The notes: generated by a model not told the origin, from the letters alone. 64,000 nt of DNA from Candidatus Moraniibacteriota bacterium (GCA_016699975.1 CP064994.1:848311-912310), one strand, 5' to 3'. Positions 26,607 through 50,062 are shown, counted from the stretch's first letter. Numbers and translations are program-made.

Positions 26607-26990
26607 TCACTGAAAGAATATCACGCTACTTTCTCTTTGAGAAATACACTTCCGCCGGTGTCCGATACTCGATCGATTGATGCAATCTCCGCTCGTTGTA
26701 AAACGGAAAATACTGATCGAGTCCTTCTTTCGCTTCCTTAAGAGTTCCGTATTCATGAAGATATACATCCTCGTAACTTCACCGTTCGTCAGAGCCGTTC
26801 GGTAAAGATATTGTCCATGCATCGTCCCCGTCCGTCCATGCTGATCAGAATGTTGTTTTCTTGGAGAGTCCCGACATATTCCTCGCTCGTATACTGCACT
26901 CCCTGATCGGAATTGTGCATTTCCGGTTCTCCCTTTTCCAAGGCATCATTGGGTGTTTCCGTACAGAATCTTGTTTCCAAACTCGGAGAA
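26607..26990 (-). pseudogene. IS3-family transposase (integrase core, rve domain) C-terminal remnant with multiple frame breaks
   Basis: The minus-strand translation gives ...EMHNSDQGVQYTSEEYVGTLQENNILISMDGRGRCMDNIFTERL... and then ...YEDVYLHEYGTLKEAKEGLDQYF..., which are typical IS3 OrfB C-terminal motifs. Confidence 0.6.
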
Positions 26991-27117: not shown

Positions 27118-27854
27118 TCAAAGCTCCTGCCTCTTCATCAAACAAGATCTCCTTACAAAATTTCCCTGAAGCTCTTGTAACCTTCCAAAAATTTGCCGGA
27201 CCTCCTCAACGCTCGGAGGATTTTGAAAGGCTCTCGAAAAGTGTGCCTGAATATTGCAAATCCCTGCAGAACAGCAGGTCATTCCATATTCACCTGCAAT
27301 ACTCCGCAGTTCTGGAAACTGACAGCAACGCCCTTCCCTCCTATCGGCAGGACAAAAATCTCCTAAAGGAGAAAGGATCTGTTGCGAATGAGAAGTTAGG
27401 ATTTGTATTGAAGTTCCCATAAACGTGCCTCCTCAAACATATGAAATGGAATAGTCACAATACCCACAAACTCGCGAATTCTCGGAAGCATACTCCACAC
27501 TCTCTCACGCGAAATCTGAGGAAAGAGACACTCCTCAGTTGTTGAAAGTTTGATAAATTCCCAGAGAGAAAAATCCTTTCCATCGATCCCAAGCCCCGGG
27601 TATGTCTTTCGTATCCAATTCACCCATTTGCTGAAAGGCTCTATGGTAATGCCAACAATCTCATCGCTTTCCGCCAAAAGCGCTGAGAAGTACCACCCAA
27701 AAGACTCGTGTACACAAGGGCAATCTCGGGTTTTATAACTGAGAGTATCCATTCCCTCCTGCCACAAAATATGCGGCTTAAATTCCGGGAATTCAAGTGG
27801 GACATGTTTTTCACCACCAGACAAAACGAGGAGCAGTTCATGAAAATCAGTCAT
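27118..27854 (-). CDS. Hypothetical protein with a Cys-rich C-terminal part (CPADRREGRCCQF...MTCCSAGICN). Two overlapping ORFs suggest one gene with a frame break near 27400.
   Basis: ORFs 27396..27854 and 27118..27420 overlap by 25 nt in different frames. No recognisable family. Confidence 0.3.
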
Positions 27855-28253: not shown

Positions 28254-28793
28254 TCACGATGCGTATTCATTCATTTTTTCCATGAGTAACTTCTGTAAAT
28301 CGTCAAATCCCATCTGTAATGTGTGAGAAGAAATACACAGGGGTGAACCATAGTTTTTGTAATTCATTTTCATGACATTTCTTTTGAACGGGTTTGCTAC
28401 TTTGTCCAAGTAGTCTTGTGGGTTTCTCACGATGATCATTAAAAGATCCTGATTCATAACCTTCGATATTCTAATTTCTTGAATATCTGTCCAGGGAATG
28501 AGCCCGACTGATATACCGCTTGAGTTGTCTGTAATGCCCTGCCTGCTGAGCACGAGCCCTGGTTTCTTATCTGAAAATTTGCGAAAGAGTATTCCTGCAA
28601 CCAGTCCAAAAAATATCACTGATACCAGTCCCGCCACAAAAATCACTGTCCGGTTTCCAAAAAGCCAGTGATTCGTTGTCGGTGGATGTACGAGAAACCA
28701 AAGTCCCAGCGCCACAAATACAAGAGAGCCGAGAAAGGCCAAGATCAGTTTCGTCCTACTCAATGGAATTTCAATTCGTTCTTCTCTGGTCAT
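28254..28793 (-). CDS. Membrane protein with two N-terminal TM helices and a PH-like C-terminal domain (resembles the STM3941/bacterial PH domain family)
   Basis: Two hydrophobic helices (LILAFLGSLVFVALGLWFLV; VIFVAGLVSVIFFGLVAGILF) are followed by ...GLVLSRQGITDNSSGISVGLIPWTDIQEIRISK. Confidence 0.4.
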   Translation of the reverse strand: MTREERIEIPLSRTKLILAFLGSLVFVALGLWFLVHPPTTNHWLFGNRTVIFVAGLVSVIFFGLVAGILFRKFSDKKPGLVLSRQGITDNSSGISVGLIPWTDIQEIRISKVMNQDLLMIIVRNPQDYLDKVANPFKRNVMKMNYKNYGSPLCISSHTLQMGFDDLQKLLMEKMNEYAS

Positions 28794-28939: not shown

Positions 28940-29516
28940 TTAGAGAGAAAGTGACTTTAAATCTTTCAAAAGACTTTTAACAAGAGACTGCAAAATCCTT
29001 TTTTCCTCCTCATTCAAATTTATTCTTTCTGATTTTACAAGTTCCTCCTTTAAATCCTTGAATCTCTCTTGAGATATATCGGAAGCAGACAGGATATCAG
29101 AGATACTCTTTCTTAAAATCTGCTGCGCTTCTAGAGGAATATCATCAGAAAAACTCTTTACTCCTTCCGCAACAATAATTGGCAACCCTTTCAGGCAGGC
29201 GTATGCCATCTCCGTTCCTGCACTGTGTCCCACATATCCGTCAACGTTAGCCACATACAAAAAATCAGCCCTGCGTATCTCTCGCATGAAATTCATTTCG
29301 AGCCTGTGGGGGGGGCGTACTCGGGTCATCCGTCGCAAGAAGAACAAATTCTTCATTTGGGTCAAGAATTTCTTTGGTTGTTGGGGAAAGAACTTTTATG
29401 CCAGCCTTTTCAAAATTTTCAATGGCCTCTCCAATTTTCTCCATGTGCTTACGAAAACTTCCAGAGACAACGGTTTCCGGGATTTTGACTGCATGTGGTT
29501 TTCTTTCGAAATTCAT
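28940..29516 (-). CDS. Nucleoside 2-deoxyribosyltransferase-like protein, frame broken at a G8 run (~29306-29316)
   Basis: ADFLYVANVDGYVGHSAGTEMAYACLKGLPII matches the NDT-family core (AD.V.AN.DG...GT..E.G.A...GKP.I). The N-terminal part (ORF 29265..29516) and C-terminal part (ORF 28940..29365) are in different frames. Confidence 0.5.
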
Positions 29517-29760: not shown

Positions 29761-29967
29761 CTATTTCAAGAGTTCGTTAACTGGAACGTCCAACGCATTG
29801 GCAAGGTTAGTAATAGTCGAAAGAGTTGGATTTGTTTTCCCGTTCTCGATGTTGCTAACAAAAGACCTGTTGACTGCTAATTTCTTAGCAATCTCAATTT
29901 GGGTAACACCTTTCTTTGTTCTGATCTTCTTGAGATTTTCCCCAAGCTTTTTCGAGTAGTCTTCCAT
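29761..29967 (-). CDS. XRE-family helix-turn-helix transcriptional regulator (68 aa)
   Basis: LKKIRTKKGVTQIEIAKKLAVNRSFVSNIENGKTNPTLSTITNLANAL is a canonical HTH_XRE. Confidence 0.7.
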   Translation of the reverse strand: MEDYSKKLGENLKKIRTKKGVTQIEIAKKLAVNRSFVSNIENGKTNPTLSTITNLANALDVPVNELLK

Positions 29968-30242: not shown

Positions 30243-31080
30243 TTGAAATGGGATTGTGGCCAGGTCCGCCCCCAACTGAATAGATATATGAAAGAGAAGC
30301 GAATGGATCGAAAATGCGAAACTCTTATTGATCCAGAACGAGCACCAATGATAAAAAAGATGTGTGAAACAGTAGCCTATGAACATTGGAGCGGGAGAAA
30401 AATCTACAACTGGCTCAAATTTGATCTGAACTTCAAAAGTGGCACCAGAAAGAGAAACTTAAGCCTCGGCAATATCTACAGGCTCCTCGATAATACCTTC
30501 TACTATGGAGTATTCTAATATCCAAGAAAATCAGGAAACTGGTACACAGGGAAACACAAACCGAGCATTACCAAAGAGCTTTTTGATCTCGTACAAAGTC
30601 AGATAAAAAGCCAAATTCTACGGGTTGAAGGGAAAGAGTTCGCTTTCACGAAAATAATGACTTGCAGACTCTGCGGATCAGGTATAAGTGCCGACGAAAA
30701 GTTCAAAAAGAAAAGAAGTGGCGGAGTTCACCGATAGGTCTCCTACGGCTGTACCAAAGCTAGAGGGACCGATTGTAAGTGTGGCTATACCGAAAAAAAA
30801 GAAATCCTAAAACATTTTGAAGAACTGATAGACAAGATAAGTCTCAATGAGATCGAGGTAAAGGAAAAATAAAAGCAGATATTGATCAGTTTTCCAAAAT
30901 GCAAAAGTTCTTTCTCGGAACAAAAGAAAAAATCAGTATTCCCAGTGTTGATATTCGAGGATATGCCAAATATATCCTCGAAGAAGGTGCGAACGAAGAG
31001 AAGTGAGAAATACTGGGTTGTCTCAAAAGCAGGATCTATCTTGCAGAGAAGAAAATAACTTTGGATAAATAAATAGACAA
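30243..31080 (+). pseudogene. Large serine recombinase remnant (recombinase domain, zinc ribbon and coiled-coil region) with several frame breaks and stops. It has no catalytic N-terminal domain.
   Basis: ...KIYNWLKFDLNFKSGTRKRNLSLGNIYRLLDNTFYYGVF is followed, in shifted frames, by ...CRLCGSGISADEKFKKKRSGGV..YGC.KA..TDCKCGY. The second serine recombinase gene at 39285 has similar motifs. Confidence 0.55.
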
Positions 31081-31089
31081 TCATAAAAG

Positions 31090-31118
31090 TAAAAAGCACG
31101 GATTTTCCGTGCTTTTTA
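31090..31118. terminator. Bidirectional hairpin (AAAAAGCACGGA-TTT-TCCGTGCTTTTT) with T/A runs on both sides
   Basis: 7-bp stem flanked by an A5 run and a T5 run. Confidence 0.4.
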
Positions 31119-31169
31119 CTTTGTAACCGACCAATGTTGCAGGTAAGCGTGTCGTGCTACCTGCTGTTG

Positions 31170-31360
31170 GCGGTGAGATTTTGCGCTTTGCGCGAACTTT
31201 TTTCGAGCAAAGCACCAAATAAGGAAGCCGTCCCCGCCGTTGCGCTCCGCCCACTGGCGGATCGCTGTATCCAGAGAGAAGTTTCTTTACGATTTCGGAT
31301 TTTGCGCGCGGTTTTTTTCTCTCAAAAATGGAAAAGAAATCTTCTCTCTGGATACTCTGC
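31170..31360. repeat. Inverted repeat IR-A (left copy, ~190 bp). Its inverted partner lies at 38945..39133.
   Basis: The reverse complement of 31170..31360 matches 38945..39133 with only a few indels. The unit contains internal hairpins (GTATCCAGAGAGAAG...CTTCTCTCTGGATAC; CCGCCAGTGGGCGG). Confidence 0.85.
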
Positions 31361-31669
31361 TTTGGCAAGCAGAACGGCGGGAACGGCTGCTGTTGGTACG
31401 CCGCAGAGATAGAAATAAATGAGCTTGTGGTTATATTCTATCACATCAGGAAATATTTTGTTCACTCATTTCTCCATCTTTGCGGCGGAGCCATATCTAC
31501 AGTTTTCGGTAGTTCATTTGTTTGTGACTCCGGTTAAGCTGGTGCCAACCCATAATATGGATTGTGCTAGAGCACAATCAAATTTAATTGTGCTTGCCCC
31601 ACCCACCCGTGCGCGCACATCTGCTCGCAAAGGATAAAAGGGTTGCGAGCAAGACTCCCTTTTCATTCC

Positions 31670-33059
31670 CTATACTGAAGCCTTACTATGCTTGCTAATC
31701 TTTATTTGGGGAGTAATACCTAATTCCGAGCATTTTCTTGCCCAGGATTCAATTTTTTGTTTCAAGATTATAGAATTTATTTCAGAGATTTTAGTTGGCA
31801 ATTTTTTGTTTTCTATGCCAATCCAAAGACAGTAAACCCGGAAAGACTGATCCAGCTTTTTAGTATTCGCTTTCTTACTTATAAGTTCAAGTGTATTATT
31901 TGCCTGGTCACAAACATATCCTAGCTTTTGTGCAGTGCCAAATTTTACAGCATACACGGTATCCTCCTTCTTTACATCCCATGCCTCAATAGGCGTGCCC
32001 GATTTAACCTTAATTTTTGAAAAATCTTTATCCGCGATACTGTACCCGTGTTTCTTCAACTCTATATTAAAATCACTTTCTATTCCCATAATTTCAATCA
32101 AATCATCCTCTACTTTCTCTAGTTCTATGGTATCAATATACTCATTGAGTTGATCCAAATAATCTTCGTTAAATCTCATCCATTTACCTTGTGACAAAAT
32201 AACATTTTGACCATCAACGATATAATCAATTGATTCCTTGAGCGTCCGCGAGAACTCATTTGCATCTTCTTTTTTTACTTTAATCTTAATACTAAGTATT
32301 TGATCATCAGGAATCGAATGTTCTGATATAAATCCATTAAGCTGCTCAATCGAAAGCTCATCTAGCTCATTTGAAAAATTTCCTCCCCAATGAAATACAT
32401 ACTTTTCTTGTCCAGAAAATATGAAATCTACACCGACAAGGTCGTGGCTATTTGCGGTAAAGTCTGCACCGTCTTTGATTCCTTTTATTTCTTTGAGAAG
32501 CTTTTCTTCATAAGAAATGACTTCGGGAAGTCCATCTATAATCATCGTTCTGGGGAGCGCGAAAAGTTCTTTTGATTCAGCTAATCTAGTCAATTTATCA
32601 AGAAAATCCTCAAGGTCCTCTTTCTCAATTTCTGGATTAAGATTTACGGATGATCCGAATTTACCAGTTTTGCCGAAGTCAGCTTTTTGCTCTTCCAATA
32701 TAGATGCTTGCAAATAGTCAACGGATTCCCCACTTTCTATATCAAGCTTTGTATGTTTTGTATAGCTTCTTATTTCTTTTTTCTTCTTGCCAGCAAACTT
32801 TTTTGTAGATTTTTGACGAACATCCTGTTTATCAACAGCACGTTTTGCAATTTCTGTTCCAAAATCATGATCGCAGTGTTGCCGAAGATAAAAATGACTC
32901 TTCCCGTAACTAATAACGAAGCAATATTTGTCATTTTCCCAAAGATAAGCTGCAAAATAAATTAAATTCTTTGGCTTATTACCAGAAAAAAATTCCTCAT
33001 ATTCTTCCACCCACGGGATTTGTTTTGAGTTAATATCTTTTGAAAAATAGAAGCTATAT
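31670..33059 (-). CDS. Unknown protein, C-terminal ~462 codons of a ~505-aa gene interrupted by an IS630 element. It is the last gene of the R-M operon.
   Basis: ORF 31670..33073. Its first 5 codons are encoded by the IS terminal inverted repeat. The upstream exon is at 34140..34265. The protein is K/E-rich with no recognised domain. Confidence 0.45.
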
Positions 33060-34138
33060 CCCCCGCAAAACAAAATAGGGGATCTGGTATATTGGATTCA
33101 TGCCCGCAAAAACAAAAACTGAACTCTCCCCCGAAGAGAAAGATTTGCTCAAAGCGTATCTCAAAACATCCCCGCTCATTCTCGTTCGCCTGAAATGCCA
33201 TGCGATTCTTACGAGAGAAAAAGGAATGCCTCTGAAAGACATCGCCGATATTGTTTCGAGACACGAAAATACTATCGGTGTATGGATGAAGAACTGGGAA
33301 AAACAACGCATGGCGAGTATCTTCACCGGACATGAGGGAATCAGAACGCAAGTAAACTCACAGAAGAACAAAAGAAGAAATCAGAGAAGCCCTCGAAAAC
33401 CACCAAGTGAATACACTCTTCCAAAAACCTTTTGGGATGTCCCCGCCCTCAAAACATATGTTCAAGCGATATTTGGAGTCGTATTTGAATCCGTTCGTTC
33501 ATATCACTTCCTCCTTTCTTTTTGCAATCTGAGTTTCAAGTATCCCGATACCTTCGATCTTCACCGGAATGAAACTCATATTGTCGAAAGAATGGTTGAA
33601 ATACAGACAGAAATCAGCCCCTTCTCAAGGATGATTCGTGGGAAGTGTTTGCTTCCGATGAAGTGCGAATGGAATTGGAAGCTCTCACCAGAAAAGCGTG
33701 GCTCAAGAAAGGAGAACGGACGATCGTGCACGTGAATCGAAAGCGAGAAGCGCAAGTTATCTCGATTGCTCAATCAAAAAACTTTCGATGCCATCTTTAT
33801 GAAGTTCCCTGGCAAAACCAAGAAGAAATACTCAAAGCGTTGGAACAATTTCTGAAAGAGTATCCTGATAAAAATCTGTATCGTATGGGACAATGCGCGA
33901 TTTCCAGGGAAGGGGAATACGAAAAGCCCTCCGTAAAGGAGGACTTCTCGAGAGAGTGCATCTCATCAACTTGCCGCCATGCCCCCGATCATAATCCGAT
34001 TGAGCAGTGTGGAATACGGCGAAAGGGATGATGGCAAACACCCAATATGAAAGTTTTGAAAAAATGAAGATGGTGTTTTTCACGTATGTGAATGGACGAG
34101 CGTTTGAGTATCGAATCTAAGATTTTGTTTTGCGGGGG
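33060..34138 (+). mobile_element. IS630/Tc1-mariner family insertion sequence (~1.08 kb) with 17-bp terminal inverted repeats CCCCCGCAAAACAAAAT and TA-type flanks
   Basis: The left TIR is at 33060..33076. Its reverse complement is at 34122..34138. Flanks are ...TATAT| and |ATATAG. Confidence 0.75.
33100..34031 (+). pseudogene. IS630-family transposase (HTH plus DDE domain), frame break near 33650
   Basis: N-terminal HTH (LKCHAILTREKGMPLKDIADIV) and a C-terminal ...APDHNPIEQ motif (the YSPDLNPIE box) occupy two overlapping frames (ORFs 33100..33735 and 33645..34031). Confidence 0.65.
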
Positions 34139-34139
34139 A

Positions 34140-34265
34140 TATAGTTTTCCATTTTCCGTGCACAGAAGAGTGAATAACTTCGAGTCCCACAGACTCAAGC
34201 TTCAATTTCAAATCTAAAACACTGTCTTTTGGAATTTTGAAGATATTCAACTTCATAATGGTCAC
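34140..34265 (-). CDS. 5' exon (42 codons) of the IS630-disrupted unknown gene. Its start overlaps the methyltransferase stop (ATGA).
   Basis: MTIMKLNIFKIPKDSVLDLKLKLESVGLEVIHSSVHGKWKTI, after which the ORF runs into the IS TIR. Confidence 0.4.
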
Positions 34266-35041
34266 TTCATTCTATTTTCTGCAACCTTAAAGTATTTTTT
34301 ATCCTTCTCTATGCCAACCCAAGTTCTGCCAAGTTTTTTTGCAACAAATGTTGTTGTGCCACTCCCGAGAAACGGGTCAAGAACAACGTCGCCTTTATTA
34401 GACGAAGCAAGAATGATTCTTCTCAACATTTCCTCTGGTTTCTGCGTTGGATGAACTGCTCGATTATCCTTTCCGCGTATTCTTTCTTTTCCTTGTACCA
34501 ATGGCAACTGCCAAACATCCCGCATTTGCTTCAAGGAGCCATCTTTTTGTTTTTCAGGATTCAGTTTTTTTAATTCCTCATAGTTGAACACCCATCCCTT
34601 GCCTTTTACCGCCCATACAACAAATTCTGTAGAGTGTGTAAATACGCGCCTCGTCATATTTGGCATCGCATTTGTTTTTTGCCAAGTAATAATATTATTG
34701 ATCTTGAAATCAAGTTGTTTCAAGACAATCATTACCTCTGAAATATTGTGATATGTGCAGGAAATATAGATTGAGCCACCTTCTCTCAAAACACGATACG
34801 CTCCACCAATCCATTTGCGTGTAAACTGCAAGTATTCAGGAGCGGACATCCTGTCCCACTCTTCGTTTACCATGTACCAATCGCCACCTGTTTTATTTCC
34901 CTTCCAATGCAAGCCATTGCCAGAAAGGTTATAGGGAGGATCAGCAAAGATAAGATCAACAGATTCTTTCTCAATCTGCTTAGTCATTATCTCTACACAA
35001 GCTCCTAGGTATAGTTGGTTTTTCTTCATATTTTTATACAA
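34262..35041 (-). CDS. Beta-class DNA methyltransferase (N6-adenine or N4-cytosine; motif IV DPPY before motif I)
   Basis: IFADPPYN near the N-terminus and LDPFLGSGTT near the C-terminus give the permuted beta-class order. The length is 259 aa, typical of the HinfI/RsrI-like group. Confidence 0.8.
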   Translation of the reverse strand: MYKNMKKNQLYLGACVEIMTKQIEKESVDLIFADPPYNLSGNGLHWKGNKTGGDWYMVNEEWDRMSAPEYLQFTRKWIGGAYRVLREGGSIYISCTYHNISEVMIVLKQLDFKINNIITWQKTNAMPNMTRRVFTHSTEFVVWAVKGKGWVFNYEELKKLNPEKQKDGSLKQMRDVWQLPLVQGKERIRGKDNRAVHPTQKPEEMLRRIILASSNKGDVVLDPFLGSGTTTFVAKKLGRTWVGIEKDKKYFKVAENRMK

Positions 35042-36848
35042 GGCTTGCCTGCCATGTTGATATGGCGTTTGGAATATTCTTTAACCACTCTCCCGAGTCC
35101 GTATACGATTTTGATGAACCAATAATTTCTTCGTACAAACGAGAGATTTCATCGTGCTTCAAAAATTTATTCTCAGATTTTATCTTGACGAGAGTTTTCA
35201 AGACTGAAACAAAATCAGTAATTGATAATGGTACTATTTTTTGAGTTTTCCCCTCATATTCATATTTGATAGCTGTCCAAAAAGTATTGACCGTATCACG
35301 ATGAATTTTTGGAGCTATAAAGAGACAATATGTTTTCTTATCAGTGTATTTATTCTCAAAATCCCGCAAATGTCTCATAACTGGCTGCCCCTCATTGTAC
35401 CATTGATCCCTACCTGTAAGCATTGTAACTTCGCAGATAGCATTAAAGTTTCCATAGAAACATTCGATGTCTGGTGTGTTGGCAGGAGCAGTAAAAGTGG
35501 GCTCATTATCGTCTCCGACAGGATAGTTTGGTTGTATTTTGAGTGCGTCATTTAGTGCGTGGAGACCAAGAGAGGACAATTTTTCAAGCAGTATCGGTCG
35601 ATCCTCAAAGTCAAAAATATTTTCGAGGTCTTTGATGTAAGATTCAACTTGTTCTACCGCTTGTGATTTTTTGTGGTTACCCTCTTCTTGTAATGTCCGC
35701 CTCAAAACCCGCAACTCCTCAATGTATGCCTTGAGTTCCGTTTCTTGAAAAGTCTGATAATCCCTTATAGCAATACCTCTCCTCTGTAAGTCACTCTCGT
35801 ATTGCTCAATATCTTGAACGAGGTTTTTGATGATTTCCACATATTTTTCCTTAGTTTCCCAAGGTAGTTGTGGTTGCGAGATATCAGAAATATAGTTTAG
35901 ATACTCATCTTTTGTTGCAAAAACCCTTGATTGCGCATTATCAAAATCAAGCAAAGATTTTATCTCAACTGATCTTCTCGATTCCAAATCAATATAATAA
36001 CCACCACCACGAATAAATATGTAGCGTGTTAGACGAGAATATCGTATTGCATTATCTCCGTAATCGCGTAGATTTTTCAGAAGTCCTGAAACTGCACTTG
36101 TCTTTTTTGTCCCGAGAAATTTACTTACAAATTCTTTTTCATAGGAATCAAAAATTGCTTTCTGTTCATTTCTATTTTTTCCAGAAAGCTTATCGCGCAA
36201 TCCTATGAGGTTTGTCGCATAACCATCAATATCCTTGTAATTTACCAATGTTGGTACGAAAAGCGAAAATTCTTTCTTACTAATTCCTTTCGCCTCTTTG
36301 CCTCGCGCAATTTCTTTTCTGTTTACAGCATCTATCAAGTGAAGCGCACCAATAAATGGTTTAATATCATATCCACTATCCTGCGAATAATCGTCATTAT
36401 CCAAGTTCGGAACTTGCCATTTCAAGAAACTTCTCAAGAAAATTTCTCCAAGATCGAAATTTTCCTTCAAAAACAATCTTCCTAAATCTGTGATAAAAAT
36501 TTTCCCATCTTTAATGGAAACAAATCCGAATTTTTTTAGAGGATTCAATGATTGTCTGCCTCGCATCGAAGGATCCTCATAGTTCTTGGCATTGAAAATT
36601 GCCTCAGCTTCTTTGAAAGAAATTTCTTTTGATTGATCGTCAATCAGGCTTATCTGATCTTCTGAAAGACCATTATAAAACTGGCGGCTTCCATACCCGT
36701 AAACTCTATTTTTAATAAGCAAAATCTGATATTTTTTCTGATTTTCTAAATTCCACTCAAAATTTTCAATCTCCTGCAAAACGACTAGGAAATTTCTTAG
36801 TCTTTCAGGATTACGTAATGTTGTTGTAATTGACCAGGGCTTTTTCAT
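35034..36848 (-). CDS. Type IIS restriction endonuclease or nicking enzyme of the AlwI family (N.BstNBI/PleI/MlyI-like)
   Basis: 604 aa. The C-terminal block ...ICEVTMLTGRDQWYNEGQPVMRHL...YCLFIAPKIHRDT...IVPLSITDF parallels ...LGEVTTSKG...EPVTRH...YCLFIAPEIN...IIPLSLKQF, recalled from N.BstNBI. The N-terminal region is also similar. Confidence 0.7.
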   Translation of the reverse strand: MKKPWSITTTLRNPERLRNFLVVLQEIENFEWNLENQKKYQILLIKNRVYGYGSRQFYNGLSEDQISLIDDQSKEISFKEAEAIFNAKNYEDPSMRGRQSLNPLKKFGFVSIKDGKIFITDLGRLFLKENFDLGEIFLRSFLKWQVPNLDNDDYSQDSGYDIKPFIGALHLIDAVNRKEIARGKEAKGISKKEFSLFVPTLVNYKDIDGYATNLIGLRDKLSGKNRNEQKAIFDSYEKEFVSKFLGTKKTSAVSGLLKNLRDYGDNAIRYSRLTRYIFIRGGGYYIDLESRRSVEIKSLLDFDNAQSRVFATKDEYLNYISDISQPQLPWETKEKYVEIIKNLVQDIEQYESDLQRRGIAIRDYQTFQETELKAYIEELRVLRRTLQEEGNHKKSQAVEQVESYIKDLENIFDFEDRPILLEKLSSLGLHALNDALKIQPNYPVGDDNEPTFTAPANTPDIECFYGNFNAICEVTMLTGRDQWYNEGQPVMRHLRDFENKYTDKKTYCLFIAPKIHRDTVNTFWTAIKYEYEGKTQKIVPLSITDFVSVLKTLVKIKSENKFLKHDEISRLYEEIIGSSKSYTDSGEWLKNIPNAISTWQASLV

Positions 36849-36850
36849 AA

Positions 36851-38659
36851 TTATTTTGTAACTTTACAATAAAAGATTCTCTCGGCATTATCATCGCCAT
36901 TACTTTTTCCAGTTGTAAATGCTTTATACTCTTTTTCGAAAATTTCCACTTCTCCTTTGCTGTTCAAAATTCTCAGTATGTCCTTATCTTTCATTCTCGC
37001 ATTTGATCGCCCATCTTTTGAGTCGCCAGTATTATTATACGAAAGCAAAATATGATTGCATTTTGCATTCATAATCAAGTCTTCAAATGCCTGCGTCGCG
37101 TTCTTTAAACAATAAGAACTTTTAATGTGCGATCGATCCATTTTCTTTCCAATTCCAACGACTGCTGGCTTTTTCCATTCCACCAAGTTTTCTAAAAGAT
37201 GGTATGCGTCAGAATACTGTCTTGAATTGTAAGGGGGATCAATATATAAAACATCACAAGTAATTTTTCGAATAAGAGCGTTTGCATCTTCCCTATAAAC
37301 TTTGTTGTTTTTATTCCGGGAATAATCAAAATCTGGCACTAGCAGCTTCAATGGCTGTACAGTATCTAATTTTTTTCGGAACGCATCATAATGCCCAACG
37401 GTATTAGCAACCTTGTCTACTGCGTAAAGCAATGAACAAATAAGCAGACTTCTTTCGTCTTCATTTTCTGCAATACGGTCAATTTCTTCTCGTATTGCTC
37501 CAATTTTCCTTGCATTTTCTAACGAAAAATATGTTCCTCCAAAATGCTTAGAGAAATAATTATCGTCTTTGCTTTGTAGATTGTTTAAATGGCTTATTTT
37601 ATTTGCTACACTGGCAAGAATATCCTTACTAACACCAAGAAAAGCATTTAAACAAACATAGTTTGCATAAAGAAAATCATTCGAAATGATTTTGACTTCT
37701 GGGGTATTAAACCTTTCACCAACAACGCCCGTTCCAGAAAAAATATCACAAAGAGAATCTATTTTCCCGCATTTCTCAGAAATAATGTCCTCTATAAACC
37801 CGAGAAGTTTATGCTTGTTTCCTAAGTACCTTCTATTTTGCAATTGAAAATACCCGGCTTTTTGTTGTATTGGCTGAAAATAATGTTTCTCGACTTTTCG
37901 AACGCTCATTTCATAAACAGGTCTTTCAATCTCTAATAAGTCAAAAAGTGTCGCCTGTGTTCCATCAGCAACATAATCAAAATCAGTACCAGTCTTTTTT
38001 AACTTTTCACAAAAACTATAATGTTCATTTTCGGAAACAATAATAAAATCAATAACGGGTATCCCCATTATTTCGCCAGCTTGTGCTATTTTCTCAACAA
38101 CTTGAGTATCTTTTTCACTCGGAGTAGTATCTCCTGATGGATGATTATGTACCAATATGACGCTAGCGGCATTTAACTCCGTTGCTGGATGAAAAATTTC
38201 TCGTGGATGTAAGAGTGTTTTATCAAGAAGCCCAACACTCACTACTTCTTTCTTAAGCAAGCCATTCCTTGCATTGAGATATAGGCAGACGAGATGTTCT
38301 TTTTTCTTATCTCGTAGATCATAAATCAAAGACAGTACATCCTGTGAGTTTTTTATGATAAGCTCATTGGATTTTTCTTCTTGATAAAACCTCTTCACGA
38401 GAGAAACAGCAGAAACAACCTGAAGAGCCTTTGCCTGCCCAATTCCTGATATTTTTTGCAAATCATCCACGGATATATCTAAAAATCCTTTTCCAAATTT
38501 TTGGATCACTTGTTGGGATAATTTTTGAACATTTTTCCCTTTGATTCCGCTCCCAAGTAGAATAGCCAAAAGATCACTTTTGGAAAGTGCATCCGGTCCT
38601 TTCTTAAGGAACCTCTCTCTTGGTCTATCCACTTTTGGAATATCTTTTATTTTTGTCAT
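36851..38659 (-). CDS. Fusion protein with an N-terminal RadC-like JAB/MPN domain and a C-terminal Dam-like (D12-class, alpha) N6-adenine DNA methyltransferase
   Basis: Residues 1-225 carry a RadC HhH region (LSKSDLLAILLGSGIKGK...ISGIGQAKALQ) and the JAMM motif HNHPSGDTTPSEKD. Residues ~250-602 carry YLGNKHKLLGFIE...DIFSGTGVVG (D12 motif I) and LYIDPPYN (motif IV). Confidence 0.75.
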   Translation of the reverse strand: MTKIKDIPKVDRPRERFLKKGPDALSKSDLLAILLGSGIKGKNVQKLSQQVIQKFGKGFLDISVDDLQKISGIGQAKALQVVSAVSLVKRFYQEEKSNELIIKNSQDVLSLIYDLRDKKKEHLVCLYLNARNGLLKKEVVSVGLLDKTLLHPREIFHPATELNAASVILVHNHPSGDTTPSEKDTQVVEKIAQAGEIMGIPVIDFIIVSENEHYSFCEKLKKTGTDFDYVADGTQATLFDLLEIERPVYEMSVRKVEKHYFQPIQQKAGYFQLQNRRYLGNKHKLLGFIEDIISEKCGKIDSLCDIFSGTGVVGERFNTPEVKIISNDFLYANYVCLNAFLGVSKDILASVANKISHLNNLQSKDDNYFSKHFGGTYFSLENARKIGAIREEIDRIAENEDERSLLICSLLYAVDKVANTVGHYDAFRKKLDTVQPLKLLVPDFDYSRNKNNKVYREDANALIRKITCDVLYIDPPYNSRQYSDAYHLLENLVEWKKPAVVGIGKKMDRSHIKSSYCLKNATQAFEDLIMNAKCNHILLSYNNTGDSKDGRSNARMKDKDILRILNSKGEVEIFEKEYKAFTTGKSNGDDNAERIFYCKVTK

Positions 38660-38661
38660 AT

Positions 38662-38910
38662 CTATTTCAAAAGCTCATCACTCGCGACATCTAACGCCTG
38701 TGCGATCTTTTCGATTGTTGCAAGGGTGGGGTTTCCTTTCCCTGCTTCAATATTGCTCACTTGAGCACGATCAAAACCGAGCTTACGACAAATGTCGCCT
38801 TGCGACATTTTCTTCTGCTCTCGTATGCGTTTGATGTTTTTCCCAAGCTTGATTGAAGGGGTAGTCATATCTATAGATTTTATTATACCGATTGTTGTGT
38901 TGTATAACAA
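38662..38910 (-). CDS. Controller (C-protein-like) XRE-family HTH regulator at the head of the R-M operon
   Basis: LGKNIKRIREQKKMSQGDICRKLGFDRAQVSNIEAGKGNPTLATIEKIAQAL. The stop is 3 nt before the RadC-methyltransferase start. About 70-80 aa. Confidence 0.6.
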   Translation of the reverse strand: MLYNTTIGIIKSIDMTTPSIKLGKNIKRIREQKKMSQGDICRKLGFDRAQVSNIEAGKGNPTLATIEKIAQALDVASDELLK

Positions 38911-38944
38911 TAATGTGATATATTACAATACACAAAGGAAAAAA

Positions 38945-39133
38945 GCAGAGTATCCAGAGAGAAGTTTTCTTTTCCATTTTTGAGAAAAAAACCGCGCGCA
39001 AAATCCGAAATCGTAAAGAAACTTCTCTCTGGATACAGCGATCCGCCAGTGGGCGGAGCGCAACGGCGGGGACGGCTTCCTTATTTGGTGCTTTGCTCGA
39101 AAAAAGTTCGCGCAAAGCGCAAAATCTCACCGC
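38945..39133. repeat. Inverted repeat IR-A' (right copy)
   Basis: Reverse complement of 31170..31360. Confidence 0.85.
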
Positions 39134-39255
39134 AAATTGAAACTTCCGAATCCGAAAGGGAAAAGGATCGGTGCGCCGAAGGCGCGGAAGAAGACAGAAG
39201 GTGGCGTCGCTCCGCGACGAATCTGAATGGGGTGGACAGGCTGAAGCGGGCGGAT
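39130..39255. repeat. Inverted repeat IR-B (left copy, ~126 bp). Its partner is at 40678..40805, and it directly abuts IR-A'.
   Basis: The reverse complement of 40678..40805 equals 39130..39255 nearly perfectly. It begins with a near-copy (1 mismatch in 9) of the tRNA-Ser 3' end (CTCACCGC versus CTCTCCGC). Confidence 0.85.
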
Positions 39256-39284
39256 TTGTCCTTGTTTCGTATCCAAAAGCAATT

Positions 39285-40690
39285 ATGATCAAACCAAAAT
39301 ATTTTCTCTACGCGCGCAAGAGTACTGAAGACGATGATCGCCAGGTAATGAGTATTGAGGCGCAGCTTTTTGAATTGCGAGAATATGCGCGTAAAGAAAA
39401 TCTTGAAATCCTGAAGGAATTTCAAGAGTCGAAAAGCGCAAAGACGCCAGGGCGAGAGGTATTCGGAAAGTTGATGGAACGAATTGAAAACGTGATGGAG
39501 TCGGTATTCTCGCGTGGCATCCTGATCGCTTGGCGCGTAATTCGATGGATGGCGGGCGCGTGGTGTACGCCGTCGATCAAAAGAAAATCGTGTCTTTGCG
39601 CTTTCCGACTTTTTGGTTTGAACCGACCCCGCAGGGGCTCTTTATGTTGCAAGTGGCGTTCGGACAATCCAAATACTATTCCGACAACCTCGCCGAGAAT
39701 ATCAAGCGAGGAATCCGCCAAAAATTGCGCCGTGGCGAGTGGCTCAACCTCGCTCCCTTTGGTTATATGAACGATCCTGTGAAGCGAAATATTGCGCCAC
39801 ATCCCACGGAAGCGCGGATTGTGCAGCTCGCGTTTGATGAGTACGCAAAAGGAACGCACACTTTCTTGTCTCTTGGCGCATTTTTGGCGGAACTTGGCGT
39901 GGTCAGTCGGAATGGAACGCCACTTGCCAAAGCTTCCATCAAACGGCTCATCACCAACCGTGCCTATCTCGGTTTTGTGAAGCACGGTAAGGAATGGTTT
40001 GATGGAAACTTTGAGCCCCTGATTTCTCCCGCTTTGTTTGAAGCCGTGCAGAAGATACTTTTGGCGAGAGAGCGACCGCGCAAGCGGAAAATGAAGCATG
40101 ATTTTCCGTTTACTGGACTTTTTCGATGTGGCGAGTGTGGTAGTATGATTTCCGCCCAATGGACGACGAATCGGCATGGCACGAAGTATCGCTACTATCG
40201 GTGCTCGAAAAAGCGCGGTCGCTGTTCGCAGTCGTACATTCAGGAGAAAACCCTCGCCAAACAATTACGAGCACGGCTTCAAACCATTTCGCTGTGTGAT
40301 CACTACACTGACTGGATGTTGGGTAAGGTGAAGGAATGGGAGCATGAAGAAGTATCGGCATCACACAGCGAAATACAAAATCTTTCAGCAACTATCAAAG
40401 CGAGTGAGGCGCGCCTGGAGAAGTTGGTTTCGATGTATTTAGATGGTGATGTTACCAAAGAAATCTACCTTCGCAAAAAAGATGAAAGTATGCGCGCCAC
40501 TCTCGCTTTGCGGGAAAAGCTGAAAGATTTGGAAAGCGGGAGAAATCAGTGGGTCGAACCCCTGCGAGAATGGATTTTGGATACGAAACAAGCCGATTTT
40601 TTGGTCGAGCATGAGGATTTGCACCAAACAAAAAGGCTCGTCCAAAAAATCGGAACGAACCCCATTGTTCGTGACAAATCCGCCCGCTTC
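39285..40690 (+). CDS. Large serine recombinase (resolvase catalytic domain, recombinase domain, zinc ribbon, coiled coil) with one frame break near 39500
   Basis: The N-terminal catalytic region is YARKSTEDDDRQVMSIEAQL... The second frame continues with ...GILAWHPDRLARN... The CGECGSMISAQW...YYRCSKKRGRC zinc ribbon follows. The end coordinate is approximate because the ORF runs into IR-B' and the tRNA. Confidence 0.75.
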
Positions 40691-40805
40691 AGCCTGTCCA
40701 CCCCATTCAGATTCGTCGCGGAGCGACGCCACCTTCTGTCTTCTTCCGCGCCTTCGGCGCACCGATCCTTTTCCCTTTCGGATTCGGAAGTTTCAATTTG
40801 CGGAG
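40678..40805. repeat. Inverted repeat IR-B' (right copy). Its last 5 nt overlap the tRNA-Ser 3' end.
   Basis: See IR-B. Confidence 0.85.
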
Positions 40806-40887
40806 AGGCAGGGATTCGAACCCTGGAAGGGGTTTCCCCCTTAACACATTAGCAGTGTGCTGCTTTCAGCCACTCAGCCACCTCTCC
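40801..40887 (-). tRNA. tRNA-Ser (anticodon GCU), class II with long variable arm. No encoded CCA.
   Basis: The minus-strand sequence folds as acceptor GGAGAGG, D-arm GCT..AGC, anticodon stem GCACA/TGTGT with loop CTGCTAA, a long variable arm, and T-arm CAGGG-TTCGAAT-CCCTG. The sequence is GGAGAGGTGGCTGAGTGGCTGAAAGCAGCACACTGCTAATGTGTTAAGGGGGAAACCCCTTCCAGGGTTCGAATCCCTGCCTCTCCG. Confidence 0.8.
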
Positions 40888-44683: not shown

Positions 44684-45043
44684 TCATTTGTAGAGAAGTA
44701 TTCCCTCTATAGCCAACCATATCTTTACAAGAGATTTTCTGTATTCTGCGCAATATTCCCTGCATAAGTTATTTTCCATCCCTCTCCTGCGCCCCGGGTC
44801 TGCGGGTGGGCAGCCAGGCCAACAACAAGGACGCGTCTTTCCTTCGGCGAGTTCAATGCATGCTCGTCTGATATGCTCTCTCCTTGTTTCCAGTTTCTTC
44901 ACGAGAGTGATCCAGCAAATCCACTCGTTTCGGGCGAGCGGCGTGAGTTTGTCCCAGATAGTCTTTACATTCGGCACAGATTTGAGAGTCTCTTTCAAAT
45001 CCTTTGGGACCACGTGCAATCTCTCAAAAGATTTTTTTATCAT
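44684..45043 (-). CDS. YdeI/OmpD-associated (DUF1905-like) family protein with an atypical extended C-terminus
   Basis: ...NEWICWITLVKKLETRREHIRRACIELAEGKTRPCCWPGCP... is the family core. The ORF continues ~45 aa past the usual end. Confidence 0.5.
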   Translation of the reverse strand: MIKKSFERLHVVPKDLKETLKSVPNVKTIWDKLTPLARNEWICWITLVKKLETRREHIRRACIELAEGKTRPCCWPGCPPADPGRRRGMENNLCREYCAEYRKSLVKIWLAIEGILLYK

Positions 45044-45796
45044 AATTAATTAAAAAGAATAGCCGTTTTTATGATTCACCATTTTCTGGATAAAGGAATT
45101 TTTGTCTGACATGCTCTTTCTTCAAAGTTCATATACAGACCTTCAGTGTAAAAAATGGACACCCACTTTTGGTGTAAGGATCTTCGAGGTAAAGAATCTC
45201 AGATAGTTCCGGTATTCTTGAGGAGCAGGCGTTATCAAGGCGACTCATTGACAGAGGAAAAGAAGCATTCCCCCACGTCGAGGGAAACTTATTGATATCA
45301 TGAAGTTCCACTCTTTTTCCCATAGGCTTGAATAAACAAACACTAACCGATATCATGCGACCGAATCTGAAATTACTACGATTTGAAATCTCTTCTACAT
45401 TTTTCTCTCACACGAATACTGGAATACACTCAAAAGGCCGCCTTATTACTTTTAGCCCAGGGCACTTGATATTTCTGGTGATATATCTTCTCGTTCTGTT
45501 TCTGATTTTCAATTTCAAAGGAGAACCTATTTTAGGAAAAAATCCGTAGGTTTTTGTGACGAAGAACACTTGTATCTCAATCACACTCGACAAGCTTGGA
45601 CGGAGCAAAACCAAAAAATTTCCCCATCATTTTTTATGTGAATTTCCTCTAACACTCCCCGTCGCGAAAAGAAAAGGCGCGGCACAATATATTTTTGCAT
45701 CTGTTCACTTTTCCCTCCCGTGCACACGCATCATGACTGCTGTTTTTGAAGAACAACATAAAACGCCGAGAATGACCTCCTGAAATACTACTACCC

Positions 45797-46440
45797 TCAT
45801 AACTTCCTTAAATCAATTCCATCATACGAGTCAATTATCATATCAGCATGGTTCAATTGATCTTGGTAAAGTAGTCGTGATCCCGATACAAAAACATGCC
45901 TGCATTTTCGCTGCTTGAATGCCTTTTTTGGAGAATCCTCAACGACGAAACAATTGCTCGGATCGGTTCCCATTTCTTCGGCAGCGTAAAGATAGATGGC
46001 GGGATTAAGGTTTCGATACATTGCCAACATCGGACGCTTTATAAATATGTTTTCCAAACTTCTTCTCCAGCTCAATATTTTTCTCGCAAGTCCAAGCAAA
46101 TGGTCGTTAGAAGAAGTGGCGATACACGTTTTCAGTCCAGCAGAACAATGCGGCATGGAAATTCTCAAAACCCGTAATGTAGGCAGACTGTTAAATATTC
46201 TTGTTCAAGCAAAGATTGACGCTCGGCAGTCAATGAATCCACGTCGCCTTGAAAATTATATCTTTCTTTGAGTAACACTGTACCTCACGCAAATGCATAC
46301 CCATCAAAGCAGGGCGACTTCTTCGCGGTTATAGACCGCTTCATGTTTCCTGAAAATTCCACATCGGCGTTGTCAAATAGAACTTCACTGTCTATGACAA
46401 CGCCATCCATATCAAAAATGAGAGTGTCGTATTTCACCAC
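45797..46440 (-). pseudogene. HAD-superfamily hydrolase (beta-PGM-like) split by a frame break
   Basis: Motif I LIFDMDGVVIDSE is on the minus strand near 46400, in a different frame from the C-terminal part ...AIYLYAAEEMGTDPSNCFVVEDSPKG...VFVS (ORF 45797..46168). Confidence 0.55.
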
Positions 46441-46554
46441 CGATAAGTCCCTTTCACAAGGTCATCAAAAAATAATTTTGTCCACGGGCGAGCTTTTCTC
46501 TTTATCTTTATAGCTAAACCAGACAACTTCCTCACTTCTGCCGCTGGCCTGATC

Positions 46555-46773
46555 TCACCATGGAAATCGGAAGAATAGCACGTCATCTCGAACCATCGTC
46601 CCTTCTGACTTGCCGTGCGCTTGCGCTTCAAAAGTACCGACATACTGTATAGTTTTGGGAATTAAATCAATAGTCAACTCCTCCTTGATTTCCCGTGTCA
46701 ATGCTTCTTGGTCAGATTCCTGTCCGTCTCGCTTTCCGCCCGGATGTATTAAGTGTCCTTTCCGCGCGAGCAT
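46555..46773 (-). pseudogene. NUDIX hydrolase fragment (Nudix box near the N-terminus, 72 aa)
   Basis: GGKRDGQESDQEALTREIKEELTI matches G(x5)E(x7)REUxEExGU. The protein is too short and lacks the N-terminal beta strands. Confidence 0.5.
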
Positions 46774-46799
46774 GTTCCAAGAATCTTCTTATCCTTTAT

Positions 46800-47885
46800 A
46801 TAAATCCACGCCAACTTATCAATGTAATTTTTTCCATACGAATATAATATACTCTAAGAATTGGTTAGCCGATATTCTTAAGCGCATTAGCCACTTTATG
46901 GATTCTCTTTTCTCAGTTTTTGACGCTTGTTCATACTTACTCATCTAAATTTACTCTGTTGTACTCATAGAGATTTTTTCAAGGTCATAAAAGCGTTTTC
47001 ATATTGGTTTTCCAGATTCGACAAACCGAGTGGGTTTTTCCTAAATAAATAGATTTCGCTTTTTAAGTAGCTTCCTGGGCACGCTTGGGGCGTCCACGTC
47101 TTTCTTGTCAGTTACAAATTTGTTACCAAATCGAAATATACCTTTTTGCGAAAGATAAAATAGTGTGATCTCTTCCAAAATAAAAATTACTTCTCGTTCA
47201 CCAACTCCGTGTCCAGTATCTTTACCATCCTCCTCTGACATATTTTCTAAAAACGGGGTCATTCTTGTATAAATCCAGTACAGCTTTATAGGTGTGTTGG
47301 GAAGGCATTCAGGAATTGTCTAAAAGGAGTTGCCCAAAAGTAGTAAAGGAAAATGCTTTAAGTATCCATTTTTGATCTTTCTTCAAAGATTCAGAAAAAG
47401 CGTTTTTATGCGAAATCATTAACAATTTAAATTTATTCCGCAATTTATAAACTGGGTTATCGGAATTAAAATAGAGATAATCACCACAAAAAATGACCGT
47501 TCCAATACCACCTGTATGCTATATTTCTGAAGCAAGATGTTTTAGATACTCAAAACATTTCTTTGGACTTTTGAGCATTCCCTATACGGCTTTATTGGAA
47601 TACCGAACAAGAGTATCCCTTCACTCCGTAGGAACTTTGTTGATATCGAAAAATTTGTCTCCAGAAAATTTTTTTCATATCTAGGGGATTAAATCCTCGA
47701 TTGTGACATCAAGGGTTTTCGCAATTTTGCTCACAATGAACACTGATGTCTCTTTAATAACATAAGTTTCAATTTTTCGGGAGAGAGAATGGATTCCTTC
47801 GGGGCCGGGCTCATGAGACATTTCGCTCTTCGAATCCTGGGCGCCCAGCAGCTAGCGTTCTTCTCTTCCGTGTTCAATTTCCAAG
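46800..47885. repeat. Tandem direct repeat unit 1 (~1.09 kb, AT-rich, degenerate coding). It ends in a partial tRNA-Ser 3'-end-like sequence.
   Basis: About 93% identity to 48262..49340 with many short indels. The 3' end GGAGAGAGAATGGATTC resembles the tRNA 3' end GGAGAGAGTGGGATTC. Confidence 0.8.
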
Positions 47886-48261
47886 GTGTTTTTGGACGAA
47901 GTTCTGAACATTTTTTGAGCAAACCCCCAATAAGGAAGCTAAATTGTTGCTGCTTGGAAACCTCGCCAATTTTTAAAAGCTACAATTTGATTTATAGCAA
48001 GACTTTTTTCTTCTAAAGGAAAAAAGAAAAACTTTGTAGTATTCTGCTCTGTAATGAGCAGGACGGCGGGGGCTGTCCGCTTTTGTATTCGCTCGGGCGT
48101 GGCGGAATTCCCCCCAAACTCCCCTTCCGCTTTTTCTTCTTCAAACGGAACGGGAACGGAAGCTGTATAGAGCAAAATTCTCCTCCAACCTCTTCTTTGT
48201 CGTCATTTCCGCTTGCTCCCGCCTCTAAAACTTTTCGGCGATTTGCGACTAATTTTCACCT

Positions 48262-49339: not shown

Positions 49340-49340
<1 letters not shown>
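48262..49340. repeat. Tandem direct repeat unit 2. It runs directly into tRNA-Ser(UGA).
   Basis: See unit 1. The partial tRNA 3' copy is at ~49237. Confidence 0.8.

Positions 49341-50062
<722 letters not shown>

Follow-up and report, generated by a model that had tools for sequence, protein, structure and literature searches.

The restriction endonucleases BstNBI and BspD6I are heterodimers whose large subunit alone nicks DNA, and their relatives MlyI and AlwI carry a single catalytic site on each chain and form dimers on DNA (PMC3017599, PMC4081073). The AlwI system carries a methylase in which two D12 (alpha-class) domains are fused (PMC4081073, PMC12898733). We describe here a four-gene operon from a Candidatus Moraniibacteriota bacterium, in a stretch of 64,000 nucleotides (nt) (GCA_016699975.1, CP064994.1:848311-912310; this whole stretch is the window below, and positions are counted from its first letter), which a first-pass annotation, made by a model from the sequence alone, had read as a Type IIS-like restriction-modification (R-M) operon. 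From sequence comparisons we judge it quite likely that the locus is a complete, probably functional Type IIS-like R-M cassette of an uncharacterised AlwI/BstNBI subfamily, acquired horizontally in a serine-recombinase-associated island by tRNA-Ser(GCT). As a defence system the cassette is ordinary, and it is already deposited and correctly auto-annotated; the most unusual element of the operon, which the first-pass annotation did not single out, is the fusion of a complete RadC protein to one of its methylases.

The operon and its endonuclease

The operon consists of four intact, co-directional open reading frames (ORFs) on the minus strand, here called C, M2, R and M1 from upstream to downstream (Table 1). 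The ORF listing of the window and the Pfam matches agree with the positions given by the first-pass annotation, and close relatives carry the same four genes. The overlapping stops and starts that had been described are in fact gaps of 2-4 nt: the C stop TAG is followed by AT and the ATG of M2, the M2 stop TAA is followed by TT and the ATG of R, and ATG 35029 of M1, which is the start used in gene calls of homologues, lies 4 nt past the R stop. Overlap survives only for R and M1, and only if M1 begins at TTG 35041, in which case it is 259 amino acids (aa) long. The short spacers suggest translational coupling of the genes. For C, the most likely start appears to be ATG 38868 and not TTG 38910, because homologues are 68-70 aa long.

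R is placed in the AlwI/BstNBI family at the level of its profile, its modelled fold and its predicted active site, as the first-pass annotation had it. It matches Pfam RE_AlwI (PF09491) with E=9e-84 and 282 bits against a cut-off of 23.1, over profile positions 3-441 of 441, and, over its full length, the PADLOC model PDLC03393, 'Type II nicking endonuclease' (E=2e-128). Among the sequences of the PDB, phmmer matched R only to N.BspD6I (R residues 92-583, E=2e-30) and to its small subunit. In this alignment E418, D456, E469 and E482 of N.BspD6I (numbering checked against the E418A and D456A mutant entries) correspond to E422, D460, E473 and E486 of R, and these four residues, whose absence would have counted against the first-pass reading, are invariant in 75/75 full-length relatives aligned with MAFFT. 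The best-conserved block of that alignment is residues 451-500, within a C-terminal PD-(D/E)XK domain of about residues 410-604 (nt 35037-35621) that has D460 in its PD and E473 in an EVT; the N-terminal two-thirds of R would then be the recognition region. The three peptide blocks that the first-pass annotation took as shared with the family do align with N.BspD6I, and all sit in the catalytic domain, where YCLFIAPKI of R faces YCLFIAPEI and the NEGQ block has the equivalent of the catalytic E482. An AlphaFold2 (AF2) model of R built from 42 sequences (predicted local distance difference test, pLDDT, 79; predicted template-modelling score, pTM, 0.74) was compared with the PDB by Foldseek, and its top eight matches are all N.BspD6I (best E=7e-22, template-modelling score 0.56-0.60, about 20% identity); these are followed by the BspD6I small subunit, which matches on the catalytic domain. 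Plasmid-borne AlwI-family enzymes (from Acinetobacter, Geobacillus and others) are 22-28% identical to R.

A tblastn search with the catalytic domain of R found no second copy of that domain and no BspD6I-type small subunit gene, either in the window or in 80 loci that hold R or its relatives and that came from a scan of one genome per species; the lone extra match, in locus L055, comes from an R gene that is divided between two places there, and corresponds to its displaced 3' end. The heterodimeric BspD6I/BstNBI subtype is excluded on this ground. Because a partner subunit gene is absent, homodimerisation on DNA would be expected, and by analogy with MlyI and AlwI the likeliest form of R is a single-chain Type IIS cutter that acts as a transient homodimer. 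R might instead be a true strand-specific nickase, in a system that restricts by nicking or has a role other than defence: its best REBASE-derived PADLOC model bears the nicking label cited above, its sole solved relative is the nickase N.BspD6I, each chain has a single catalytic centre, and the loci searched hold no gene for a small subunit. However, the PADLOC label reflects naming by homology and not an assay, N.BstNBI/BspD6I proved to be the large subunit of a heterodimeric cutter, and the single-chain relatives MlyI and AlwI dimerise and cut both strands (PMC3017599). Two dedicated methylases and a C regulator are, moreover, what is expected around a lethal double-strand cutter. We consider the nickase improbable and retain the transient homodimer as the preferred form of R.

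C, which had been called a C-protein at the outset, matches the PADLOC model Control_protein (PDLC03665, E=6e-14), one of a set of REBASE-derived profiles, and Pfam HTH_3 (a helix-turn-helix, HTH, family; E=4e-16). A gene for it also stands ahead of the M2 gene in L083-L086, L004, L021 and L091. The top-scoring promoter candidate of the region (10/12 matches in the promoter scan) lies immediately upstream, with a -35 element TTGTTA (38910-38905), a 17-nt spacer and a -10 element TATAAT (38887-38882) that ends 13 nt ahead of the C start codon, so the leader would be very short. Two candidate C-box dyads, ATTGTT-N9-AACAAT and TTGTA...TACAA, overlap the -35 element and are predicted operators. 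No known C-box consensus was matched upstream of C, and alignments of close relatives are too similar to inform on this point. Promoter and terminator scans of the operon gave sites no more numerous than in shuffled sequence; the position of the best promoter site, taken alone, is suggestive.

The methylases and the RadC fusion

The fusion of RadC to a D12 methylase that the first-pass annotation saw in M2 is well borne out. The N-terminal 219 residues match the NCBIfam RadC equivalog PRK00024 with 221 bits against a cut-off of 180, and include the JAMM residues E154, H171 and H173 (as H171-N-H173), S181 and D184. Residues 271-601 match PADLOC MTase_II (PDLC03373, E=9e-116) and Pfam MethyltransfD12 (E=1e-33), with motif I as DIFSGTG and motif IV as DPPY. 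This methylase domain is, to judge from its profile scores, not a Dam orthologue: the Dam subfamily model TIGR00571 gives it 16 bits against a cut-off of 115, and a comparison with the solved structures of the PDB gave no match, with none to Dam or DpnM at E<0.01. Its N-terminal motif RRYLGNK is presumably closer to the M.FokI type than to Dam. The same continuous three-domain architecture recurs in at least 120 database clusters that are 74-95% identical, and an artefact of annotation or a frameshift is rejected on the strength of these independent clusters. The JAMM motif is intact in 26 of 28 fused proteins, and its residues are invariant or nearly so in the alignment.

The position in front of the D12 domain proved to be a variable slot. 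A complete RadC fills it in 28 loci, a complete LexA (LexA_DNA_bind plus Peptidase_S24) in L035, L036, L048 and L050, and an HTH_3 or HTH_26 domain in L052 and L077, respectively; in L062, L066 and L073 there is a short region like a MerR/excisionase-type HTH (Pfam, run on L062 alone, reported no HTH in that region), and in some loci the methylase has nothing in front and is about 330-400 aa long. Sister lineages have LexA or HTH regulators in this slot, and the RadC module of M2 is most plausibly an accessory module for DNA targeting or regulation that does not belong to the catalytic core. The LexA-D12 fusions belong to a Parcubacteria clade of the same cassette (at about positions 3300-5000 of their loci) and occur also as P0246 and P0296. 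Through such a fusion an R-M methylase would be tied to a self-cleaving repressor of the SOS type, and we found no description of a LexA-methylase fusion in the literature searched.

RadC-methylase fusions were sought exhaustively in 1.84 billion representatives, followed by Pfam and context look-ups. A complete RadC, with its helix-hairpin-helix (HhH) and JAB domains, precedes methylases of the alpha, beta and C5 classes in five or more unrelated Type II systems. RadC-C5 fusions adjoin RE_NgoFVII_C (P0335, L087), MTaX1 (P0271, L090) and RE_HpaII, the last followed by Vsr and AAA_13 genes and preceded by a C gene (P0267, L091), and a fusion of RadC to a beta-class N6/N4 methylase adjoins EcoRII-C (P0325, L088 and L089). 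In L091 the C and RadC parts have 59% and 60% identity, respectively, to their counterparts in the window and the similarity ends in the linker, as would be expected if methylase-endonuclease modules swap behind a shared C-RadC front end. L091 shares its upstream C gene and its downstream AAA_13 gene with close relatives of the window cassette. Fusions of RadC that have been recorded are with HhH, ArdC, DnaG primase and DinG helicases (PMC3239186, PMC5512222), and none with a methylase was found described in the literature searched; as late as 2025 a review gave the RadC domain's activity as unknown (PMC11981726).

It could be argued that the RadC part of M2 is a passenger without a role in R-M, left by a chance fusion of a methylase with a housekeeping radC gene. 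It scores as an ordinary RadC equivalog, about a third of the close relatives lack it and presumably still work, and some RadC-methylase loci, such as L087, lie among housekeeping genes. Set against this, the fusion travels with the cassette across phyla, the identity of the RadC parts (63-85%) is close to that of the D12 parts, the JAMM motif is retained in 26/28, RadC has been joined independently to D12, beta-class and C5 methylases that each stand beside a different restriction enzyme, and sister lineages have a LexA or HTH regulator in its place. We regard a passenger as possible but rather unlikely, and an accessory module as the better account of the RadC part.

The linker between the RadC and D12 domains (DGTQATLFDLLE) bears a QxxLF motif within the pattern DYVADG-x-Q-x-x-L-F-D-L-L-E. 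In 117/117 RadC-D12 fusions, proteins that are closely related to one another, the Q, L and F never change while the residues at x do, and the background frequency of QxxLF is 7% per 70-aa window. The motif lies 36-40 aa ahead of the N-terminal motif of the D12 domain, and variants without RadC keep it at their extreme N-terminus (for example 'MGIQRTLFDL'). It is found as well in RadC-C5 fusions (QSSLF, QKSLF), in a LexA-D12 fusion (QLPLF) and in a plain D12 methylase at residue 5 (QLALF). The bacterial consensus for binding to the beta sliding clamp is QL(S/D)LF, and eukaryotic Dnmt1 is tethered to PCNA by a clamp-binding motif (PMC9690074). The linker thus resembles a clamp-binding motif, which we put forward as a hypothesis and not as a finding. 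The residues that flank QxxLF are conserved too, which is not typical of a simple linear motif, and the AF2 model of M2 is poor (pLDDT 54, pTM 0.34), so that neither domain packing nor exposure of the linker can be judged from it; the linker has the lowest confidence of the model (pLDDT <50), with a short helix at 236-241. The literature searched held no description of a bacterial R-M methylase that binds the clamp.

A more ambitious proposal, which we consider a long shot, is that RadC, a protein present in nearly all bacteria, is an accessory module of R-M DNA methylases, that QxxLF tethers the methylase to the sliding clamp much as Dnmt1 is tethered to PCNA, and that the JAB domain senses the state of the DNA or cleaves the fusion after the invariant Gly233. 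The range of Type II methylases that carry a complete RadC is in keeping with such a role, and LexA, when it fills the slot, is likewise a DNA-binding domain followed by a peptidase. If the proposal were true, cleavage after Gly233 would free a methylase with the clamp-binding motif as its new N-terminus, and the vicinity of Gly233 is about where the variants without RadC begin. The RadC fusion, the slot shared by LexA, HTH and RadC modules, and the QxxLF linker offer a testable handle on RadC function, and all three bear on a possible coupling of bacterial R-M methylases to the replisome.

M1 is, as had been proposed, a beta-class methylase. It matches Pfam N6_N4_Mtase (E=3e-63), has the beta-class motif order (DPPY near residue 35, LDPFLGSGTT near residue 222), and matches CcrM (PDB 6pbd) with E=2e-58 and about 50% identity over the catalytic domain; its score against the NCBIfam CcrM model, 258 bits, is far under the 830 bits required for an equivalog. 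The REBASE-derived profiles of PADLOC class M1, like M2, as a Type II methylase. The last residue of M1, 259, pairs with about residue 249 of CcrM, and in the 6pbd alignment the C-terminal non-specific DNA-binding domain of CcrM (residues 271-358) is missing from M1. In the DNA-bound structure of CcrM, Arg44, Pro45, Leu38/Leu42 and Arg129 read G1, N3 and T4 (PMC6787082). These base contacts are not conserved in M1, which has Lys, Gly, Gly/His and Val there and a loop 2B that is two residues longer, and since they are replaced the GANTC specificity of CcrM cannot be assumed for M1, and its transfer to M1 is rejected. Transfer of a specificity to R from N.BspD6I or from the plasmid-borne AlwI-family enzymes was likewise rejected, at about 20-28% identity. 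GAGTC-like and GGATC-like sites would be candidates only, and the site of R cannot be inferred from the sequence.

Spread of the cassette and its island

The first-pass annotation had thought that R might be a new enzyme, which it is not: an identical protein, encoded on a 1.05-Mb contig, is deposited in NCBI under the name 'AlwI family type II restriction endonuclease [Candidatus Moraniibacteriota bacterium]', and it has hundreds of close relatives. The proteins that match R at E<=1e-10 number 2534, and each of the top 120 clusters has 66% identity to it or more. Hosts of the 80 loci are found in lineages of the Patescibacteria/candidate phyla radiation (CPR), Gammaproteobacteria, Chloroflexota, Poribacteria, Omnitrophota and Cloacimonadota, and further in Nitrospirae, Spirochaetes, Melainabacteria, Firmicutes and DPANN archaea. 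Among the carriers of the cassette are complete metagenome-assembled genomes of the OZ series (L005, L009, L017, L019 and L020). The core of the cassette, namely a D12 methylase followed by R and a beta-class methylase, keeps this order in roughly 50 loci spread over many phyla, as tblastn searches with the individual window proteins showed. More distant relatives, with 41-51% identity in R, are without the beta-class enzyme and have the D12 methylase fused to a second D12 domain, which points to non-orthologous replacement of the second-strand methylase; the branch thus shows, within one enzyme family, a swap between a separate beta-class enzyme and a fused second D12 domain. Given the conserved core order and the D12-D12 fusion of the distant clade, two methylases per system appear to be the rule in this branch of the family. 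The first-pass annotation's wider claim, that the family needs two strand-specific methylases, does not always hold, as MlyI has one GASTC enzyme and AlwI has two fused domains (PMC4081073).

What emerges is a large, widely transferred and uncharacterised branch of a family that supplies nicking enzymes for isothermal amplification, in which a new specificity or a naturally monomeric nickase may be possible. A single ORF of about 1340-1420 aa at 2529-6791 of L073, from Harryflintia acetispora DSM 100433, holds two D12 domains and an AlwI-family endonuclease, with a possible N-terminal HTH seen by eye. It appears to be a single-chain methylase-methylase-endonuclease enzyme in a cultured organism, and it could be an experimental entry point to this branch.

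Table 1. Features of the cassette and its surroundings, with positions counted from the first letter of the window
Feature	Position	Strand	Basis or remark
C gene, XRE/HTH_3 type, 68 aa	38662..38868	-	HTH_3, PADLOC Control_protein; ORF as listed 38662-38910
M2 gene, RadC-D12 fusion, 602 aa	36851..38659	-	Pfam UPF0758_N + RadC + MethyltransfD12; ORF as listed
M2 RadC N-terminal HhH domain, residues 4-78	38426-38650	-	Pfam UPF0758_N
M2 RadC JAB domain, residues 102-219	38003-38356	-	Pfam RadC
M2 linker motif Q235-A-T-L-F239, candidate beta-sliding-clamp-binding motif	37943..37957	-	Within DYVADGtQATLFDLLE
M2 D12/alpha-class methylase domain, residues 271-601	36857-37849	-	Pfam MethyltransfD12
R gene, AlwI/BstNBI-family endonuclease, 604 aa	35034..36848	-	Pfam RE_AlwI; ORF as listed
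M1 gene, beta-class N6-adenine methylase, 255 aa from ATG	34262..35029	-	Pfam N6_N4_Mtase; ORF as listed 34262-35041
Predicted promoter/operator region of the operon	38869..38933	-	Best promoter-like site, candidate dyads
Left inverted-repeat arm, bounding cassette and cargo	31167..31363		Pairs with 38942-39136, 98% over 197 nt with gaps
Right inverted-repeat arm, just upstream of the operon promoter	38942..39136		
DUF6119/TIGR04141 gene, 467 aa, island cargo	31670..33073	-	Pfam DUF6119 E=1e-23, NCBIfam TIGR04141
IS630-like remnant	33042..34156	+	HTH_23 + DDE_3 fragments, 35-nt terminal inverted repeats
Large serine recombinase gene, divergent from the operon	39285..40672	+	Pfam Resolvase, Recombinase, Zn_ribbon_recom over two frames
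tRNA-Ser(GCT)	40800..40887	-	ARAGORN, Rfam

The surroundings of the operon fit the earlier description of an AT-rich island, bounded by inverted repeats, bearing an insertion sequence (IS) and lying beside a serine recombinase gene. The GC content is 0.365 in the operon versus 0.47-0.50 in the flanks, and the inverted repeat of Table 1 encloses the operon, an IS630-like remnant and a DUF6119/TIGR04141 gene. The remnant sits between the M1 and DUF6119 genes, 105 nt past the end of M1; in L010 a DUF6119 homologue that is 67% identical follows directly after M1 (7723-9084), and this adjacency marks the remnant in the window as an insertion. PADLOC has no match for the DUF6119/TIGR04141 protein, which belongs to the 'sporadically distributed' kind and may be a defence-island passenger.

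A second inverted repeat, 39126-39260 / 40673-40807 (135 nt, 99%), brackets the serine recombinase gene, and its right arm overlaps the 3' end of tRNA-Ser(GCT) by 8 nt. This tRNA gene is the probable integration target of the island; L004 and L025 likewise have it shortly before the cassette and with the same orientation (three genomes in all). The recombinase frame is broken near 39494 by a 1-nt deletion ('gaaaacg-tgatgga') relative to the intact homologue of L084, which could reflect pseudogenisation or a homopolymer or assembly error. In L083-L086 the homology to the window is exactly 38930-34264, that is, the promoter and the four genes, with 85-92% DNA identity and the same boundaries; different cargo (AAA-type ATPase genes) follows the cassette there, and the homology resumes at the repeat. 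L083 and L084 also have a divergent recombinase (58-63% identity) in the same position and orientation, and an upstream copy of the repeat. The arrangement of recombinase, inverted repeat, cassette, variable cargo and second copy of the inverted repeat is conserved in L083 and L084.

Several further features of the window were seen. The inverted-repeat arms at 38942-39136 and 31167-31363 contain a hairpin with a 15-bp stem (CTTCTCTCTGGATAC / GTATCCAGAGAGAAG) and a loop of about 57 nt, and an Rfam scan of the inverted-repeat segments matched only the tRNA. Just left of the left repeat arm, the plus strand at 30243-31100 holds pieces of another large serine recombinase (Recombinase domain, E=5e-4), and an rve integrase fragment lies further left, at 26789-26980 on the minus strand, which suggests that successive mobile elements piled up and decayed at about 26.5-31 kb. 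A second HTH_3 protein of 68 aa, 52% identical to C, is encoded at 29761-29967 on the minus strand, with a perfect dyad TTGTTGTA-N6-TACAACAA just before a TATACT -10 element (in the region from 29967 to about 30040). It is followed by small ORFs without a family match (29265-29516, 28940-29365, 28254-28793 and 27396-27854), and its gene could be the regulator of a further module, decayed or unknown, within this AT-rich island. At about 45000-49400 there is another AT-rich region (GC 0.37-0.41) without any ORF >125 aa, with internal repeats and gene fragments that look, by eye, like HAD and NUDIX types, and at about 47789 there is a duplicate of the sequence that flanks tRNA-Ser(TGA) at 49341-49431. 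This region looks like another decayed element integrated at a tRNA-Ser gene.

In the mechanism that we propose, the four genes would be transcribed from one promoter just upstream of C, and the C protein would, as in other C-controlled systems, bind the dyads over the -35 element and so set the timing and level of expression in a new cell. The alpha-class D12 domain of M2 and the beta-class M1 would protect the host, each methylating one strand of an asymmetric site. The N-terminal region of R would bind that site and its single PD-(D/E)XK centre would cut a few bases to one side, with the double-strand cut most likely made by a transient dimer on DNA as in MlyI, AlwI and FokI. The RadC module, whose position is seen directly, would have an accessory targeting or regulatory role.

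Several observations weigh against the reading of the locus as a working C-controlled R-M cassette with two strand-specific methylases. The C gene is missing from most relatives of the cassette. With a single C-controlled promoter for all four genes, methylation cannot precede restriction by way of separate promoters, unlike in classical C systems, and the promoter scan showed no internal promoters in the operon. M1 is CcrM-like, and one GANTC/GASTC enzyme would protect both strands of GAGTC, which would make M2 redundant if GAGTC were the site. The host part of the window shows no depletion of 4-6-mers (observed/expected by a Markov model: GAGTC/GACTC 1.06, GGATC/GATCC 1.04, GATC 0.98); these ratios are uninformative on specificity, because avoidance is expected only after long residence. 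Finally, the island is decaying, as its IS remnant and frameshifted recombinase attest, and inactivation of the R-M genes by a point mutation is possible. This last point can be extended to the idea that the cassette is itself a decaying or inactive remnant, or that the methylases are now orphans, in a degenerating island: the IS630-like remnant begins close behind M1, the neighbouring recombinase is frameshifted, and recombinase and integrase fragments lie further left. All four ORFs are nevertheless of full length, their catalytic, S-adenosylmethionine and DPPY motifs are intact, and only substitutions distinguish the cassette from intact relatives along the whole 4.67 kb, although an inactive R beside active methylases would look the same at the sequence level. 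We consider it very improbable that the cassette is such a remnant, and a complete R-M system remains our reading of the locus.

Comparison with described systems

The closest solved relative of R is the large subunit of R.BspD6I/BstNBI (Nt.BspD6I / Nt.BstNBI; GAGTC 4/6; PDB 2EWF). R is also 604 aa long and shares with it the Pfam family, the full-length model fold, the four catalytic residues and the YCLFIAP block; it differs in that it is only about 20% identical in structural alignment, with a poorly conserved recognition region, and in that no gene for the small catalytic subunit (186 aa in BspD6I) was found in the window or the 80 loci. Like MlyI/PleI (GAGTC 5/5), R is one chain with one catalytic site and without a partner subunit (PMC4081073, PMC3017599). 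M1 is related to GANTC-type methylases, as the companion of MlyI (GASTC) would be, but MlyI has a single companion methylase whereas the window cassette has two of different classes. With AlwI (GGATC 4/5; two strand-specific methylases in one chain) it shares the endonuclease family and the possession of two adenine methylases, and more distant relatives of R are accompanied by fused D12-D12 methylases whose first D12 domain has about 50% identity with that of M2. Unlike in AlwI, a beta-class methylase encoded separately, after R, takes the place of the second D12 domain, and the first bears RadC.

Type II R-M systems such as PvuII, AhdI and Esp1396I are C-controlled. The window cassette resembles them in its small, co-oriented HTH_3 protein upstream, the predicted dyads over the -35 element and the very short leader, and it is unlike those C-controlled systems that have a methylase promoter of their own in that both methylase genes lie downstream of C in the same apparent transcription unit. 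Methylases with N-terminal regulatory HTH domains are known as well, for example those of the M.SsoII type, to which the HTH_3, HTH_26 or LexA modules in the D12 slot of sister lineages are comparable; the module of M2 differs from these in being a complete RadC, with both HhH and JAB domains. Lastly, the conserved QxxLF of its linker appears to resemble the clamp-binding consensus, as in the tethering of Dnmt1 to PCNA (PMC9690074).

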